Shown in pieces: positions 15,746 to 23,576 of a stretch of 64,000 nucleotides of DNA; positions within the stretch are counted from its first letter, which is position 1, and the number at the start of each line of letters is the position of its first letter. Source of the stretch: Tepidiformaceae bacterium. GTDB lineage: Bacteria; Chloroflexota; Dehalococcoidia; Tepidiformales; Tepidiformaceae. Under the pieces are notes generated by a model. That model was not told the origin of the DNA, searched no databases, and worked only from the letters and a program-made list of their open reading frames with translations. The stretch is from positions 768 to 64,767 of the forward strand of contig JBDSJC010000163.1 of assembly GCA_039917655.1 (NCBI GenBank), in the 5' to 3' direction. Both the position numbers and the translations under genes were made by a program.

Positions 15746-18193
15746 ATGCTCCTGGCCCAGATCATGATCCCTGCGGCAAGCGCCGCGGCGGTCCTATTTG
15801 CCATCTGGCTTGCCTATGACGTCCTGCGCAGGGACAAAGGCACGCCGGAAATGCAAGAGGTCGCCGGTACGATTCTGGAGGGCGCAAATGCCTTCCTCAG
15901 CCGCCAGTACCGCACTATCGGCATCCTCGCGCTGGTCACTTCCGTGGTGGTCGGTGCGATCGTCGCTATCTTCAAAGGGTCCGGTGAGGCCGGCGTCCTT
16001 ACGGGCGTCGCCTTCATCGTCGGGGCAATCGCTTCCGGCCTCTCGGGCTACATCGGCATGTCGATCGCAGTCCGGGCCAACGGCCGCACAGCGTCGGCGG
16101 CCCAAAATAGCCTCGCCGACGCAATTAACACCGCGCTCCGTGGTGGCGCAGTCTCCGGCTTTCTGGTCGTGGCGCTCAGCCTCATCGGCGTTTCAAGCAT
16201 CTTCGCGATCTACAGCCGGGTGCTAGGCAACAACATTGATGAGACGCCGTTCCTGATCGTCGGCTTCGGCTTCGGCGCGAGCTTCGTCGCCCTGTTCGCG
16301 CAACTCGGTGGCGGCATTTACACGAAGGCCGCCGATGTTGGCGCGGACCTGGTTGGTAAAGTCGAAGCCGGAATTCCGGAAGACGACCCACGCAACGCAG
16401 CCGTCATCGCTGACCTCGTCGGCGACAACGTTGGTGACTGCGCGGGCCGCGGCGCTGACCTGTTCGAATCCATGTCCGCCGAAAACATCGGCGCCATGAT
16501 CCTCGGTGTTGCCATCTTCACGGCCACCGGCCGGGTGGAATGGATCCTCTTCCCGCTCGTGCTCCGTTCGTTCGGCGTGTTCGCCACGATCATCGGCATG
16601 TTGACCGTCCCTTTCTGGGCGAAGCGGATCAAGGACCCGATGGGCGCGCTGAACGGTGGTTACTGGGTGATCACCGCGCTGAGCGTCGGCGGTTTGGCCA
16701 TCGCTACCTACATGATGATGGACTCCGGCTCGTGGTTCTGGTTCTTCCTCTGCGGCGTGGTCGGTATTCTCACCGGTATCGCTTTCGTCTACATAACGCA
16801 GTACTACACCGCGGGCGCCTGGCGTCCCGTGCAGGAGATCGCCCGCGCCAGCAAGACTGGCGCCGCGACGAACATGATCATCGGCACCGCGGTTGGATTC
16901 GAAACCACCGCTGTGACCGCAATTACGGTCGGTATCGCGCTCGTCGTCTCGTTCGTCCTCGGACAACAGGCCGACCCTGAGGGGGCCGCCGGCATCACGG
17001 CGCACGTGAGCAACGTCTCGACCGGCGTCTTCGGCACAGCCGTGGCGACCATGGGCATGTTGATGTCCGCCGCCTATGTGCTGGCCATGGACACCTTCGG
17101 CCCGATCACCGACAACGCCGGTGGCATTACGCAGATGGCAGCCGGCACCAAGCCTGAAGCGCGTGAGATCACGGACCAGTTGGACACCGTCGGAAACACG
17201 ACGAAGGCGCTCACGAAAGGTTACGCCGTCGGTTCCGCCGCGCTCGCAGCCTTCCTGCTCTTCACGGCGTACCTCGATGAGGTGCGGGTCGAGTTCGGAA
17301 AGATCGCCCACGAAGACGCTTCGCGATATGCGGACCTGATCCAGGACCTGGACCTCACTCGACAAGGGTCGGACGAACAGGCCGCCGTGACAGCGGCGAT
17401 CAGCAAGCATTCAGCGGCCCTCAAGGCTTGTGGCCTGAACGACAAAGGCATCGAGACGCTGCTGACCGCGGACCGTAACGAAGCGACCGCGTACATCAAC
17501 AAGCTCGCCAAGGACAAGAAGTCCGGCTCCGATTGCGCCATCGGCGCGGAGGGCAGCCCGTTCCCGCTACCGCGAATCATGCCAATCAACCTTGGCAAGG
17601 TTGAGGTCTTCGTCGGCGCTCTGCTAGGCGTAATGCTTGCATTCCTCTTCAGCTCGCTCTCGATTCGCGCTGTTGGCAAGGCGGCCGGGGGCATCATCGA
17701 AGAGGTGCGCCGCCAGTTCCGCGAAAACCCGGGAATCATGACCGGCGAGGTCCGCCCGGACTATACAAGGGCGGTGGATATCACCACCCGCGCGGCCCTG
17801 CGCGAGATGGTGGTGCCGGGTGTCCTCGCAGTCGGACTGCCGATCGCTGTCGGCGTCGTCTTCCGCTACGCCTTTGGTGGAGACGGCAACGAAGGCTGGC
17901 TCGCGGTGGCCGGGATGCTGATGGTCGGCACCATTGGAGGCGTCCTGTTGGCGACGTACTTGAACAACGCGGGTGGCGCGTGGGACAACGCCAAGAAGTT
18001 CATCGAATCCGGTGGACTGAGGGACGACAAGACCGGTGAAGTCATCGGCAAGGGTACCGATACTCACGCGGCGGCCGTCGTGGGCGATACCGTGGGTGAC
18101 CCCTTCAAGGACACCGCCGGGCCAGCGCTCCACGTCTTGGTGAAGCTGCTGAGCACGATTACCCTCGTGCTGGCGCCGCTGTTCATCAGCTAA
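15746..18193 (+). CDS. hppA: membrane-bound proton-translocating pyrophosphatase (K+-independent type)
   Basis: 815 aa and polytopic. It contains ADLVGKVE, DNVGDCAGRGADLFES, DNAGGI, GNTTKA (Lys at the K+-independence position), GGAWDNAKK and GDTVGDPFKDT. Confidence 0.93.
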   Translation: MLLAQIMIPAASAAAVLFAIWLAYDVLRRDKGTPEMQEVAGTILEGANAFLSRQYRTIGILALVTSVVVGAIVAIFKGSGEAGVLTGVAFIVGAIASGLSGYIGMSIAVRANGRTASAAQNSLADAINTALRGGAVSGFLVVALSLIGVSSIFAIYSRVLGNNIDETPFLIVGFGFGASFVALFAQLGGGIYTKAADVGADLVGKVEAGIPEDDPRNAAVIADLVGDNVGDCAGRGADLFESMSAENIGAMILGVAIFTATGRVEWILFPLVLRSFGVFATIIGMLTVPFWAKRIKDPMGALNGGYWVITALSVGGLAIATYMMMDSGSWFWFFLCGVVGILTGIAFVYITQYYTAGAWRPVQEIARASKTGAATNMIIGTAVGFETTAVTAITVGIALVVSFVLGQQADPEGAAGITAHVSNVSTGVFGTAVATMGMLMSAAYVLAMDTFGPITDNAGGITQMAAGTKPEAREITDQLDTVGNTTKALTKGYAVGSAALAAFLLFTAYLDEVRVEFGKIAHEDASRYADLIQDLDLTRQGSDEQAAVTAAISKHSAALKACGLNDKGIETLLTADRNEATAYINKLAKDKKSGSDCAIGAEGSPFPLPRIMPINLGKVEVFVGALLGVMLAFLFSSLSIRAVGKAAGGIIEEVRRQFRENPGIMTGEVRPDYTRAVDITTRAALREMVVPGVLAVGLPIAVGVVFRYAFGGDGNEGWLAVAGMLMVGTIGGVLLATYLNNAGGAWDNAKKFIESGGLRDDKTGEVIGKGTDTHAAAVVGDTVGDPFKDTAGPALHVLVKLLSTITLVLAPLFIS

Positions 18194-18407: not shown

Positions 18408-18701
18408 ATGAAACGCGCGTCGATTACAGAAGTGAAAAACGGCCTGAGTGCGCTGCTTGACCAGGTGAAGGCGGGCGAGACGATCGTCATCACCGATCGT
18501 GGCATCCCGGTTGCGCGGATTGTTAGCGATGTGGGCGCGGATAACGACCATGGAAGAGTGGCTCGCCTGATCCGAGATGGCGTCGCGACAACGAGGGGCG
18601 GACCGTCGCCCCTAGAGCGCATCCTCCGCCCGTTCCCGCCCGGTTCCAAGCCAGCCGGCGTCCTTGAGGCGCTGCTCGAAGAGAGAAGAGAGGGGCGTTG
18701 A
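18408..18701 (+). CDS. type II antitoxin, Phd/YefM family
   Basis: MKRASITEVKNGLSALLDQVKAGETIVITDRGIPVARIV is a typical Phd/YefM N-terminus. Its stop overlaps the start of the downstream PIN gene. Confidence 0.8.
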   Translation: MKRASITEVKNGLSALLDQVKAGETIVITDRGIPVARIVSDVGADNDHGRVARLIRDGVATTRGGPSPLERILRPFPPGSKPAGVLEALLEERREGR

Positions 18702-19129
18702 GGTTCTGGGATGCGTCGGCCGTCGTCCCGCTGCTCGTCGAGGAAGCCACCACCTCGACGATGGTGCGAGGACTGGGAAACGATCAAGAGATGGTCGTCT
18801 GGTGGGGCACCGAGGTTGAGTGCATGTCGGCCATCGCACGTCGCCGTCGGAGCAACTCGCTCACTCAAGGCCTTGAGCGCGACGCTATCGACCGTCTCCG
18901 CCACCTGTCGAGATCGTGGAAAGAGATCGACCCGGCTTCAGCCGTCCGCGAAACGGCCATCCGGCTGCTCCAGACCTACGACCTTCGAGCCGCGGACGCA
19001 CTCCAGCTGGCTGCAGCGTTTGCGGCCGCGGAGGGCCGTCCATCGACGTTGGCGTTCGTCTCGTTGGATGCGCGGCTGAACGAAGCGGGGCTACGTGAGG
19101 GGTTCCGATTGCTTGACCTCGCGACCTAG
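18698..19129 (+). CDS. vapC: type II toxin, PIN-domain ribonuclease VapC
   Basis: It starts FWDASAVVPLL.EE and contains LR..DALQLAAA...... followed by FVSLDARL. These are PIN acidic-residue positions, and the gene is coupled to the antitoxin. Confidence 0.8.
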   Translation: MRFWDASAVVPLLVEEATTSTMVRGLGNDQEMVVWWGTEVECMSAIARRRRSNSLTQGLERDAIDRLRHLSRSWKEIDPASAVRETAIRLLQTYDLRAADALQLAAAFAAAEGRPSTLAFVSLDARLNEAGLREGFRLLDLAT

Positions 19130-20249: not shown

Positions 20250-20279
20250 TTGACACCCTTACCACAGAGTTGTTAGCGT
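20250..20279 (+). promoter_or_regulatory. candidate sigma-70 promoter (TTGACA - 18 nt - extended -10 TGTTAGCGT)
   Basis: TTGACA at 20250-20255 and TG-n-TAGCGT at 20271-20279, in a locally lower-GC spacer about 55 nt upstream of the riboswitch P1. Confidence 0.4.
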
Positions 20280-20336
20280 CAGGTGGTAGGCGAGCAATTG
20301 CCCACATACGCGCTCGGTTCTAACACTTGTGCACCA

Positions 20337-20450
20337 CTGCCTAGTGCGCCTCAGGCGCAGCGGGGGATCCAACATCCCGGGGTGAATTCGGCCACCAGCG
20401 GCCGATAGGGCGTCCTTCTGCCCGAACCCGTCAGCTAACCCCGTCGGCAG
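20337..20450 (+). promoter_or_regulatory. c-di-AMP riboswitch (ydaO-yuaA / kimA class)
   Basis: The conserved blocks occur in the right order. They are P1 CTGCC...GGCAG, hairpin GCGCC-TCA-GGCGC, GCGGGGGAUCCAA, GGGGUGAAUUC, AUAGGGCG and CCCGAACCCGUCAGCUAACCCCGUCGGC. Compare B. subtilis ydaO: GCGGGGGACCCA, GGGGUGAAUC, GUAGGGCG, CCCGAACCCGUCAGCUAACCUCGUAAGC. Confidence 0.8.
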
Positions 20451-20549
20451 CAGGAAGGCCTGGCGAGCAGGTAGCTCGTTTCGAGGTCAGTTTCTCACCC
20501 CTCGAATGACCAATTGATACCGCCTTATGTGCGATGGAGGAATAGATCT

Positions 20550-20768
20550 ATGCCCGCTTTGCAAGAAGCCCCGCCCAAGTCATGTCCGAAGTGCCGCGGC
20601 TCGATGATCGTTGAACGCGATTGGCATGGGACCTACGGCAGCTGCATCATGTGCGGCTACGTCCACGAAGTGCTTACGAGTCCGCCTGTCGATCTTGCCG
20701 CCGAAGAGGCCGCGTTGCCGCAGCGGCAGCGACGCCGTCAGCCTTCCCACGGCAAACTTCGGCTCTGA
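20550..20768 (+). CDS. small zinc-ribbon protein (CxxC-N17-CxxC), function unknown
   Basis: The ATG at 20550 has GGAGGA 8 nt upstream. The product is MPALQEAPPKSCPKCRGSMIVERDWHGTYGSCIMCGYVHE... with a basic tail RQRRRQPSHGKLRL. It is the first ORF downstream of the riboswitch. Confidence 0.6.
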   Translation: MPALQEAPPKSCPKCRGSMIVERDWHGTYGSCIMCGYVHEVLTSPPVDLAAEEAALPQRQRRRQPSHGKLRL

Positions 20769-20791
20769 GCTGAACGGATGACGAACACCAG

Positions 20792-20828
20792 GGGCCCCCG
20801 CCTGTCATAGGTAGGGGCCCTTTGCTTT
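20792..20828 (+). terminator. intrinsic terminator after zinc-ribbon ORF
   Basis: Stem GGGCCCC ... GGGGCCC with a 15-nt loop, followed by TTTGCTTT. Confidence 0.5.
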
Positions 20829-21171: not shown

Positions 21172-21549
21172 CCCCGGCGGCGTTTCGCCAGGGCGATGAC
21201 TCGGAACGCCAGGCACGCGCACGTTTTGGGGCGGGGGCATGCCGCTCGTTGGGTCTTCGCTCGGGTGTTTACCACCACGGGGAATCGCTTCGTGGGCATC
21301 GATGACAGATTGTCGGAAGCTGGGCATCATGCCGGAGGGAACGGAGGGTTTCGGTTTGGGAACGTCTCGGGGTTATTGCGATGGTTATCAGGGTAATCCC
21401 CTATACGCGTGTGTTGTTCGTTCACTAGACTAGACAAAGTCTTAAGGGTTTTCGCCACCCAGTGCGAACCCTTTCCCGTCGGGTCGCCTCAGGTCAATCG
21501 TTGGCAGGAGTTCGATGGGGGACGATTTGCCGGAGGAACAAGAGAAAGA

Positions 21550-22356
21550 ATGAACAATTCACGAACACCAGGCCGTCCCATTGGGCTTCGCACGTCAGCC
21601 GCCCCTTCGAACCAGACGCAACAGCAGAACCGCAATCAGCACCCCATCCGCATCCTGCTGGTAGACGACCACGCCGTGATCCGCCAGGCCCTCCGGATGT
21701 TGCTGGAGAGCCAGCCTGAACTCGAAGTCGTCGCCGACGTTGAGAATGGCCGCGAAGCGGTTCAGGCGGTCGAGAAGCTTTCGCCAGACGTGGTACTGAT
21801 GGATGTGGTGATGCCCGGCCTGAATGGCCTGGAGGCCACCCGCCAGATCCGCCGCTCTTCCCCCAGCACGCGCGTGGTGATGCTCAGCGGCTTCGTTGAT
21901 GAAGACCAGCTGCTGGACTCGATCCGCGCCGGCGCCTCGGGCTACATCATCAAGAAATCGGATGTCTCCGAACTCGTCCTCGCCATTCAGACGGTCCATC
22001 GCGGAAACAGTTACTTCTCGAGCGCCTTGAGCGAAGGGTTTGACCTTGCGGAAGTTCTCTACCAGGCGAAGCGCTCCGATCAGCGCACCGGCGTCGAAGC
22101 GCTCACCTCTCGCGAGCGTGAAGTCCTTCAACTGATCGCCGAGGGCCACACCAACCAGGGGATCGCCAACGAGCTCTACATTTCAGTGAAGACGGTGGAG
22201 GCGCACAAGGCGCACATTATGGCCAAGCTTCACGCCCGCAACCGCACGGACCTCATCCGCTACGCCATCCGCAAGGGCATCGTGCGCCTCGAAAGCATGG
22301 AAGAGGCCGAGAGAATGATGGTCAACATGGGCGGCGAATCGAGCGTCGCTGGGTAG
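21550..22356 (+). CDS. NarL/FixJ (LuxR-type HTH) response regulator, no cognate kinase adjacent
   Basis: Internal ATG at 21550 (GGAGGA upstream). The receiver domain contains IRILLVDDHAVIRQAL...DVVLMDVVMPGLNG...VVMLSG. The LuxR HTH contains LTSREREVLQLIAEGHTNQGIANELYISVKTVEAHKAHIMAKL. There is a 36-aa Q/N/S-rich N-terminal extension. Confidence 0.88.
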   Translation: MNNSRTPGRPIGLRTSAAPSNQTQQQNRNQHPIRILLVDDHAVIRQALRMLLESQPELEVVADVENGREAVQAVEKLSPDVVLMDVVMPGLNGLEATRQIRRSSPSTRVVMLSGFVDEDQLLDSIRAGASGYIIKKSDVSELVLAIQTVHRGNSYFSSALSEGFDLAEVLYQAKRSDQRTGVEALTSREREVLQLIAEGHTNQGIANELYISVKTVEAHKAHIMAKLHARNRTDLIRYAIRKGIVRLESMEEAERMMVNMGGESSVAG

Positions 22357-22575: not shown

Positions 22576-22776
22576 ATGATCCAACTGACACGCATTGATG
22601 GCACCAAGTTCTACATCAACCCGGACCTCATTGAGGTGATGGAGGCGAGCCACGATACCCACGTGACGCTGACGAACGGCCACCGGTATGTCTGCGCGGA
22701 GAGCCCCGACGACGTTGTCCAGCGCATCGCCGAATTCCGCCGTTTGAGCATGGGCGCAATCCGGAGGAGCGCCTAA
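22576..22776 (+). CDS. flbD: flagellar protein FlbD
   Basis: MIQLTRIDGTKFYINPDLIEVMEASHDTHVTLTNGHRYVCAESPDDVVQRI is the classic FlbD pattern. The gene directly precedes motA. Confidence 0.88.
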   Translation: MIQLTRIDGTKFYINPDLIEVMEASHDTHVTLTNGHRYVCAESPDDVVQRIAEFRRLSMGAIRRSA

Positions 22777-23576
22777 TGGACCTCGCAACCGTCATCGGAC
22801 TGGCGCTCGCCTTTGGCGGGATCATCGGTGGAAACATTCTGGAGGGCGGAAACCCAGCGGCGCTGTTCAATATCCCCGGAATCTTGATCGTCATAGTCGG
22901 GACGTTCGGCGCCGTGATGATCTCTCAGCCTCTGCCGGTGATGATCGGGTTGCCCAAGTTCATCCTCAAGGCCGTGATGGGCGGCAAAGGCCACAACTCG
23001 GCCGTCACCGTGGACCTTTTTGTGACGATGGCCGATAAGGCGCGGCGCGAGGGCTTGCTCGCCCTGGAAGCCGATGTCGGCAACATTCACGATGAGTTCA
23101 CGCGCAAAGGCGTGCAGCTCATGATCGATGGCACGGACCCCGAACTGCTCCGCGAGATCATGGAGATCGAAGCGGACTCCATGAAGCACCGCCACGAAGG
23201 GAACTTCGCCGCCCTGGAGTTTATGGGCGGCATTGCGCCCACGATTGGCGTGCTTGGCGCCGTGATGGGGCTGATGGGCGTCATGGCCCACCTCGATCAA
23301 CCAGAAGAGATCGGCCCCGGCATCGCGACAGCGTTCGTGGCCACGTTCTACGGCGTGTTCACCGCCAACGTCCTTTGGCTTCCGCTGGCGGCGAAGTTGA
23401 AGAACAACTCCAAGCACGAGATGCACGCCCTTAACGTCGTCGTCGAAGGGTTGATGTCCATCCAGTCCGGCGACAACCCCCGGATTGTGCGGGAGAAGCT
23501 GGAAGGCTTCCTCACACCCAAGGAGCGCCAAAAGAAAGACTCGGGCGGCGCCGAAGCGCAACGGGAAGCGGCGTGA
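22776..23576 (+). CDS. motA: flagellar stator protein MotA
   Basis: 266 aa and polytopic. It contains GGNILEGG, REGLLALE, the C-terminal AFVATFYGVFTANVLWLPLA plug/TM3-4 pattern, and a TAATG overlap with flbD. Confidence 0.9.
   Translation: MDLATVIGLALAFGGIIGGNILEGGNPAALFNIPGILIVIVGTFGAVMISQPLPVMIGLPKFILKAVMGGKGHNSAVTVDLFVTMADKARREGLLALEADVGNIHDEFTRKGVQLMIDGTDPELLREIMEIEADSMKHRHEGNFAALEFMGGIAPTIGVLGAVMGLMGVMAHLDQPEEIGPGIATAFVATFYGVFTANVLWLPLAAKLKNNSKHEMHALNVVVEGLMSIQSGDNPRIVREKLEGFLTPKERQKKDSGGAEAQREAA

Follow-up and report, generated by a model that had tools for sequence, protein, structure and literature searches.

What does a cyclic di-adenosine monophosphate (c-di-AMP) riboswitch control when the first gene behind it encodes neither a transporter nor a cell-wall enzyme? 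The question is raised by a stretch of DNA of 64,000 nucleotides (nt) from a Tepidiformaceae bacterium of the phylum Chloroflexota (GenBank assembly GCA_039917655.1, contig JBDSJC010000163.1, positions 768 to 64,767), which as a whole is called here the window. An aptamer of the ydaO class lies there in a cis-regulatory placement, on the same strand as a small gene, with its 3′ end 87 nt before the ATG and a covarying hairpin adjoining it. The gene, referred to below as the mini-gene, encodes a mini-protein of 72 amino acids (aa) with a predicted zinc-ribbon fold. The targets described for ydaO-yuaA riboswitches are osmoregulation-linked transporters and cell-wall remodelling enzymes, and no target resembling the mini-protein is found among them (PMC3766115). 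Taking the locus as a whole, its best explanation is a riboswitch-gated monocistronic zinc-ribbon gene, in which the riboswitch would act as an OFF switch and the product as a docking regulator; we give this reading a probability of about 0.72. The sensor class is known, and what is new is the lineage-restricted output, an unclassified zinc-ribbon mini-protein that is almost always riboswitch-gated across the phylum.

The aptamer and the gene behind it

The Rfam covariance models were scanned over the entire window, where a single match reached its gathering score. This was the c-di-AMP model RF00379, with 84.8 bits (E 2.5e-18), more than twice its curated gathering score of 38 bits. Model positions 1-134 of 134 were aligned without truncation and with mostly maximal posterior probabilities, two non-canonical pairs being flagged, and the complete RF00379 architecture is present, with all model helices and conserved junction sequences in order. 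The original prediction, made from the letters alone, had called a ydaO-class riboswitch from a series of conserved blocks, and the covariance-model scan bears out that call: CTGCC/GGCAG, GCGCC-TCA-GGCGC, GGGGUGAAU, UAGGGCG and CCGAACCCGUCAGCUAACC all fall inside the RF00379 alignment. Direct reading also finds the loop UCCUUCU (20413-19) complementary to the purine-rich 3′ tail AGGAAGG (20452-58), which is likely the pseudoknot of the aptamer, a type of pairing that the covariance model leaves unscored. Judged by the covariance model, the element is a bona fide c-di-AMP riboswitch.

Extreme purifying selection acts on the open reading frame (ORF) behind the aptamer. A scan of one genome for each GTDB species gave 428 stretches coding for a relative of the mini-protein, and the 80 closest loci were compared. 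Across these species-level loci the protein is 93-100% identical to that of the window, while third codon positions agree at 40-66%, and it is because of this difference that the sequence comparison marks the mini-ORF as a real, translated gene under unusually strong purifying selection. The edge of conservation falls exactly at the ATG after GGAGG, upstream in-frame codons varying from locus to locus, and a GGAGG or GAGGAGG motif occupies the same position in the relatives. The H+-pyrophosphatase (15746-18193) and MotA (22776-23576) encoded nearby show 75-88% protein identity, below the 93-100% of the mini-protein; conservation above that of these two proteins is unusual for a protein without an assigned function. 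A search of 5.8 billion protein clusters returned 120 relatives of 53-113 aa. Those with descriptive names are all labelled ‘hypothetical protein’ or carry guessed zinc-ribbon labels, and the named source bins are Dehalococcoidia or Chloroflexota.

The transcription unit appears to be delimited on both sides. The TTGACA box and the extended −10 element of a putative promoter, predicted ahead of the aptamer, are indeed there (Table 1), and these motifs are conserved in relatives: TTGACACC is invariant in the promoter block of seven aligned leaders, including four without an aptamer, and TGnTAnnnT is retained in six of the seven. A consensus promoter scan did not call this promoter, whose −10 hexamer matches at just three of six positions; from its position, transcription would start near 20286. 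The claim that the ORF has a terminator of its own holds as well, since a hairpin with a ΔG of −24.5 kcal/mol (z −2.6) lies 22 nt past the stop codon with UUUGCUUU behind it. Hairpins of ΔG −12 or stronger occur within 100 nt of the mini-gene stop codon in 81 of 96 loci. By these sequence features, the mini-gene is a monocistronic unit with its own putative promoter and terminator.

Table 1. Coordinates of the riboswitch, the mini-gene and adjoining features in the window
Feature	Position	Strand	Basis and details
Putative sigma-70-type promoter	20250..20279	+	-35 TTGACA 20250-55, 18-nt spacer, extended -10 TGT-TAGCGT 20271-79; read from sequence
c-di-AMP riboswitch aptamer RF00379	20328..20462	+	cmscan 84.8 bits vs 38, full model
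Aptamer P1	CTGCC 20337-41 with GGCAG 20446-50	+	within RF00379 alignment
Expression-platform hairpin	20457..20488	+	GGCCU-G-GCGAGC / loop AGGUA / GCUCGU-UUCG-AGGUC; covariation and folding
Alternative hairpin	20480..20506	+	possible pairing of UUCGAGG 20480-86 with CCUCGAA 20500-06; weak covariation
Shine-Dalgarno GGAGG	20536..20540	+	9 nt before ATG; read from sequence
Zinc-ribbon mini-protein gene, 72 aa	20550..20768	+	ATG 20550, stop codon ends 20768
Terminator-like hairpin after mini-gene	hairpin 20790-20822, element to 20832	+	then UUUGCUUUCC
ABM-family gene, 95 aa	20884..21171	+	Pfam ABM 24.6 bits vs cut-off 23.1

Linkage of aptamer and mini-gene across genomes

The association of the aptamer with the mini-gene is conserved far beyond the window. 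RF00379 matches at or above the gathering score stand directly upstream of the mini-ORF in 75 of 79 close loci (20/20, 15/19, 20/20 and 20/20), at a distance of 45-100 nt, and immediately upstream in all 16 loci of eight distant protein clusters, whose members are 52-73% identical to the mini-protein and whose aptamers score 67-104 bits. In total, 91 of 95 homologue loci carry the riboswitch, the aptamers of the relatives scoring 54-104 bits. The genes that flank the pair at the distant loci, namely leuA, cobalamin genes, an MMPL transporter, Trm112, an ammonium transporter (amtB) and PBP/FtsW, are unrelated to those of the window, and the aptamer and the mini-gene are the sole elements that travel together between close and distant loci. 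Judging by these sequence comparisons, aptamer and mini-gene form a regulatory unit of great age that has been conserved in Chloroflexota, and all the named source bins belong to Dehalococcoidia or a related group.

Four close loci (L035, L048, L061 and L072) gave no RF00379 match upstream of the mini-gene even at E up to 1. They keep the mini-gene together with the promoter block TTGACACC ... TGnTAnnnT (L035:2680-3003, L048:2525-2848, L061:2680-3003, L072:2680-3003), and in L035 decayed aptamer fragments are still visible. Loss or decay of the aptamer has left these lineages as natural riboswitch-less variants and possible comparators.

Another riboswitch class occurs near the pair in two distant lineages. 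Cobalamin riboswitches (RF00174, about 40 bits) at L081:896-1022(-), L082:896-1022(-) and L090:3482-3622(-) lie upstream of FecCD or periplasmic-binding-protein transporter genes close to the mini-gene, and in L090 the cobalamin and c-di-AMP riboswitches stand back to back in one intergenic region.

A target outside the known c-di-AMP regulon

The mini-gene falls outside the known regulon classes, which comprise K+, Na+ and osmolyte transporters, amino-acid permeases and cell-wall hydrolases. As a background sample we used 120 metagenome loci with an exact aptamer core, and the first ORF preceded by a ribosome-binding site (RBS) was scanned in 103 of them. NlpC/P60 proteins were by far the most frequent (29), followed by peptidase M23 (6), the FlgD Ig-like domain FlgD_ig (3), and Na+/H+ exchangers, c-di-AMP receptor proteins and CAP-domain proteins (2 each); Kup, TrkH, OpuAC, amino-acid permeases and the zinc-ribbon mini-gene appeared once each. 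That this would be an unusual output for the riboswitch class had been anticipated, and with transporters and hydrolases dominating the sample and the mini-gene accounting for 1 of 103 ORFs, the expectation is sustained, for a sample that is mostly actinobacterial-looking and uninformative on the share of the mini-gene among riboswitch targets within Chloroflexota. A full-text literature search returned no paper on the pairing of riboswitch and mini-protein, though the founding ydaO papers may already list the gene as a ‘hypothetical’ target.

Comparison with characterised relatives places the locus within a familiar architecture that carries an unfamiliar product. Like the Firmicutes RF00379 riboswitches (kdpFABC of Bacillus thuringiensis; ydaO(kimA) and ktrAB of B. 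subtilis), it combines the same aptamer family with a 5′-leader position and, in most relatives of the window, with a hairpin and U-tract directly after the aptamer; unlike them, it belongs to Chloroflexota, its target is a 72-aa soluble zinc-ribbon protein and the U-tract of the window is degraded. With the actinobacterial c-di-AMP riboswitches that precede secreted NlpC/P60, M23 and Rpf hydrolases it shares the aptamer core CCGAACCCGUCAGCUAACC and a high-GC context. The mini-protein differs from those hydrolases in having neither a signal peptide nor a hydrolase domain, nor does it have a transporter domain. A further difference is that the pair persists in the marine contigs L087-089, which may or may not belong to the marine Dehalococcoidia radiation, reported to have lost peptidoglycan (PMC10284905).

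The background sample also included other small or self-referential outputs. Genes for c-di-AMP receptors (Pfam CdAMP_rec, PF06153) lie directly downstream of the aptamer core at L125:88-411(+) and L184:2683-3063(+), where the riboswitch would control a protein receptor of its own ligand. A different small Cys-rich ORF (62-75 aa), with a motif of roughly C.NCG...I.W......G..(Y/F)C(W/C)..CA.G, is found about 140-175 nt downstream of the aptamer core at L119:1926-2150(-), L158:606-791(-) and L192:1925-2128(+). It may be that riboswitches of this class repeatedly control small metal-binding proteins, an output that has gone unstudied.

Expression platform and proposed switching

The original prediction had noted a short hairpin followed by UUUCG (20464-20483) behind the aptamer. 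The hairpin is real, and it forms the inner part of a larger covarying one, the expression-platform hairpin of Table 1; UUUCG is no U-tract, its letters belonging to the 3′ strand or internal loop of this structure. The platform hairpin adjoins the aptamer directly, shares 2 nt with the 3′ end of the pseudoknot tail and folds in the window with a ΔG of −14.3 to −16.4 kcal/mol. Across 57 distinct leaders 91.3% of its cells are paired, compared with at most 52% in slid registers, and double-sided changes amount to 29 cells against 9.8 ± 2.3 in shuffled alignments (0 of 500 shuffles). Compensatory variants exist for five of the six inner pairs (CGAGC/GCUCG, CGGGC/GCCCG, CGGAC/GUCCG, CGGCC/GGCCG, CGCGC/GCGCG). 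In about 33 of the 57 leaders (~58%) a run of five to eight U (U5-U8) follows, which is the textbook form of an intrinsic terminator, and in L095 and L096 a quite different stem with U6 takes the place of the hairpin. In the window the corresponding tract is the degraded AGUUUCUCAC (20489-98), and its closest relative, L016, likewise has no U5-U8. A possible alternative hairpin (Table 1), with the U-tract position in its loop, would compete for the 3′ arm of the platform hairpin. With 75.6% of cells paired, compared with up to 57% in slid controls, and 18 double-change cells against 10.1 in shuffles, it is possibly a second, partly conserved structure with weak support from covariation.

At the B. 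thuringiensis kdp riboswitch, intrinsic termination is favoured by c-di-AMP, and transcription reads through when c-di-AMP is low (PMC6488665). Because of this analogy, the riboswitch family ahead of the mini-gene is most likely a transcriptional OFF switch. The conserved promoter would start transcription about 40 nt ahead of the aptamer; at high c-di-AMP the aptamer would fold, the adjoining platform hairpin would form, and the transcript would be ended or silenced before the ORF, whereas at low c-di-AMP the leader would be read through and the mini-protein made from its strong GGAGG site, the second hairpin closing the transcription unit. The output would then be the mini-protein itself, a small regulator of the docking or adaptor type that would bind a conserved partner in the cell via its invariant C-terminal peptide RRRQPSHGKLRL. 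The process to which it would relay low c-di-AMP would be neither the transport of ions or osmolytes nor the hydrolysis of the wall, and its role would not be specific to the flagellum.

Several observations weigh against this reading. Four close loci are devoid of the aptamer, and riboswitch control is therefore dispensable in some lineages. A terminator scanner called no terminator in the window leader, in which AGUUUCUCAC offers no usable U-tract, and about 40% of the leaders are, like that of the window, U-poor after the platform hairpin. Termination is thus perhaps not the mechanism in the window, translational, Rho-dependent or RNA-stability control being possible in its place. No antiterminator pairing was identified, single-sequence minimum-free-energy folding of the leader being uninformative (z −0.46 and +0.66), and fold and sequence searches point to no binding partner, having yielded generic zinc ribbons at non-significant scores. 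Since the stem is kept in the window while the U-tract is degraded and the terminator scan is empty, the mechanism at this locus is one that we only infer.

These same features feed the alternative that survives best, although we rate it clearly below the riboswitch-gated OFF switch: the switch would be functional in the window, with the hairpin working through translation (by way of RBS access), Rho, or RNA processing or stability, and with a polarity that might not be the classical OFF. To the hairpins without a U-tract may be added the distant leaders L081 and L090, in which just 33-44 nt separate the aptamer from the start codon and which hold a hairpin and no U-run, and the partial conservation of the alternative hairpin that overlaps the 3′ arm. 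Intrinsic termination is favoured by the textbook stem with U7 found in most leaders and by the unrelated stem with U6 that replaces it in L095/L096, by the absence of any convincing anti-Shine-Dalgarno pairing in the window, and by the fact that the characterised kdp member is a transcriptional OFF switch (PMC6488665).

The mini-protein and its long forms

The layout of the mini-protein is C12-x2-C15-N16-C32-x2-C35, followed by an acidic linker and the almost invariant C-terminal end RQRRRQPSHGKLRL. The zinc-ribbon ORF of 72 aa described in the original prediction is thus recovered, with a spacing of 16 residues between the knuckles in place of the 17 given there. Both CxxC knuckles and the tail are the conserved parts of the alignment. 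C32 and C35 are invariant, and C12 and C15 are present in every full-length row, 5′-truncated gene calls being without that part. Within the tail, R61, P65, S66 and L72 are invariant among the homologues, and Q60, R62-Q64 and H67-R71 are at least 90% conserved. Such invariance of a terminal peptide suggests, at the level of sequence, a specific and conserved binding partner.

The AlphaFold2 model comprises a three-stranded ribbon at residues 10-42 (strands 18-23, 27-32 and 38-42) with a predicted local distance difference test (pLDDT) score of 83-91, then a short helix (49-55) and a tail modelled at low confidence. According to this model the mini-protein has a zinc-ribbon fold, with two CxxC knuckles on a three-stranded sheet, and zinc binding is predicted. 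No Pfam or NCBIfam family was matched above its cut-off and no PHROG was matched; the nearest models, Zn_Ribbon_TF (PF08271, 21.9 bits vs a cut-off of 29) and Zn_ribbon_RPB9 (PF02150, 18.2 vs 25.2), stay below the scores that define membership. Nor was any solved structure significantly matched, since neither Foldseek on the PDB nor a profile search among PDB sequences went beyond generic ribbons at non-significant scores. The best neighbours of the ribbon were the RPC10/RPB9 N-ribbons, Elf1, TFIIB, eL43 and ZifS (E at least 0.067 by Foldseek and at least 0.026 by hmmsearch). With the N-ribbons of RPB9/RPC10/TFS and TFIIB, with Elf1 and with Thermus ZifS (PDB 8yoz) the mini-protein shares a four-cysteine, three-stranded ribbon of about 30 residues; unlike all of them, it has an acidic linker and the RRRQPSHGKLRL end, the most conserved part of its family. 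The earlier label of a nucleic-acid-binding protein thus remains a guess, drawn from sub-threshold similarity and a generic zinc ribbon. Two other candidates were discarded. A supposed likeness of the tail to ribosomal protein bL34 (KRTfQPS...HGFRaRM) was dropped, there being no Pfam match at E up to 10 and none by phmmer against the PDB, and a phage or mobile origin of the mini-gene was rejected, as no PHROG matches the short or long forms save for one weak, spurious hit, and the contexts are cellular.

With E values up to 1e-10, a profile search of 1.84 billion representatives returned 105 proteins. Some of these are 190-736 aa long and end in the ribbon, the acidic linker and a RRRQPSHGK[LI]RL tail behind unrelated N-terminal parts, so that in sequence terms ribbon plus tail behaves as a portable module. 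These long forms (P0128, P0195, P0208, P0169, P0133, P0141, P0218, P0152, P0138, P0197, P0131 and P0176, the last attributed to Nanoarchaeia or ‘uncultured archaeon’ bins) contain in their N-terminal parts one to four copies of a helical unit, ‘NPWxL(T/S)..E.T....R...G.S..E.A..L’. Sub-threshold matches to Sigma70_r4 (E 0.007-0.025) were obtained for two of seven units, and NCBIfam sigma models gave E values of 6e-4 to 0.01. An assignment of these N-termini to the helix-turn-helix of sigma-70 region 4 is unproven, the matches being sub-threshold and Foldseek of a long-form model (pLDDT 63) having matched the ribbon only. At L097 (4918-5652), the sole long-form locus that could be read, no riboswitch was found.

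The long forms bear on what the mini-protein might do. Our leading guess at a function, though a doubtful one, is that the ribbon-tail module docks on the transcription machinery or on RNA, with the free mini-protein acting as a competitor or mimic of long proteins that have helix-turn-helix-like domains. The occurrence of the module in the long forms, the sub-threshold sigma matches of their helical units, the arginine-rich tail, and the presence of the RNA polymerase subunits RPC10/RPB9, Elf1 and TFIIB among the best, albeit non-significant, neighbours of the ribbon all point in this direction. Opposed to it are the non-significance of every one of these similarities in a fold as generic as the zinc ribbon, the ribbon-only match of the long-form model and the riboswitch-less long-form locus.

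Motility and the neighbouring genes

Downstream of the mini-gene, as had been predicted, lies a flagellar cluster, which Pfam matches place at 22576 to about 40700 (FlbD, MotAB, FliN, FliOPR, FlhBA, FlhF, a sigma factor, FlgG and FlgK). Its proximity had led to the proposal that the mini-protein couples c-di-AMP, and with it osmotic or cell-wall status, to flagellar motility, for instance via the NarL-type regulator or the flagellar cluster. We regard this as improbable. The window does hold a complete flagellar cluster, and the order mini-gene, ABM gene, NarL-type regulator, FlbD-MotA-MotB is preserved across the close clade (NarL in 57 of 80 close loci, FlbD/MotA in 27-28 of 80, the latter number being limited by locus length) and recurs in the distant lineage L081/L082, where the mini-protein is 54% identical. 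Flagella and peptidoglycan are reported, however, to be ancestral to Dehalococcoidia, to have passed down vertically and to have disappeared in the marine radiation (PMC10284905), so that shared flagellar synteny is expected from descent alone. Six other distant lineages carry the pair among leuA, cobalamin, MMPL, Trm112, amtB or PBP/FtsW genes with no flagellar genes within about 4 kb, the marine contigs L087-089, whose cluster has a Tara member, being among them, and the mini-gene evidently persists where no flagellar genes are close by; besides, it has its own putative promoter and terminator. The tie to motility is therefore positional only, and with distant loci devoid of nearby flagellar genes, a flagellum-specific role is rejected as a general explanation.

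The mini-gene had also been described as lying about 800 bp upstream of an orphan NarL-type regulator. The regulator is indeed nearby, with the ABM-family gene intervening (Table 1). This gene follows the mini-gene in 66 of 80 close loci, and ABM-family proteins of 90-98 aa recur in four separate lineages (the window, L085:4351-4641, L095:4372-4668 and L090:4314-4586), the distant ones being 31-45% identical. A GC-rich hairpin always separates the two genes. The ABM gene is probably a transcription unit separate from the riboswitch-controlled transcript, and its product may be a functional partner of the mini-protein. That the mini-ORF is incidental, with the riboswitch controlling the ABM gene or the NarL regulator by read-through or the leader being a free RNA, is very improbable: the ABM gene does recur behind the mini-gene in the four lineages and GC-rich hairpins with short U-runs can leak, but purifying selection on the ORF is extreme, no other element is a constant companion of the aptamer, the next gene is convergent in L087-089 and L092-094, and a strong hairpin follows the mini-gene stop codon.

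Two further neighbours deserve mention. The NarL/GerE-type response regulator (21409-22356, +) has about 80 residues before its receiver domain, the Pfam match beginning at residue 82, and its true start codon is probably further downstream than that of the longest ORF. In L081 and L082, separate receiver-only and GerE-only genes stand at its position. On the other side, a Phd/YefM-type antitoxin (97 aa) and a PIN-like protein (143 aa; PIN 21.1 bits, below the 23.6 cut-off) are encoded with a 4-nt overlap at 18408-19129 (+). The two look like a type II toxin-antitoxin system; present in just 6 of the 80 related loci, they form a variable insert that separates the H+-pyrophosphatase and GNAT genes.

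Implications for c-di-AMP signalling in Chloroflexota

Within the reading of a riboswitch-gated monocistronic gene, the mini-protein is probably an unrecognised output of c-di-AMP signalling and one that is not specific to flagella. A bolder version, which we advance tentatively and hold to be considerably less likely, is that the mini-protein is the dedicated effector arm of c-di-AMP signalling in Chloroflexota, made only at low c-di-AMP; its tail would dock on RNA polymerase, the ribosome or RNA and reprogramme that machine, the module having been reused in larger, possibly DNA-binding proteins of other uncultured lineages. If true, this would add a trans-acting layer to a second-messenger system whose targets known to date are transporters, a small number of enzymes and transcription factors, and cis-acting RNAs.

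Riboswitch-controlled genes without a known function are direct pointers to the missing parts of signalling pathways. In the present case there is little doubt about the ligand class, and the target family is absent from Pfam, NCBIfam and PHROGs. The pair constitutes a testable entry into the c-di-AMP biology of Chloroflexota, a large, little-studied phylum with motile Tepidiforma strains in culture, and the mini-protein, with the distinctive docking peptide at its C-terminus, is a candidate small-protein effector of a new kind.

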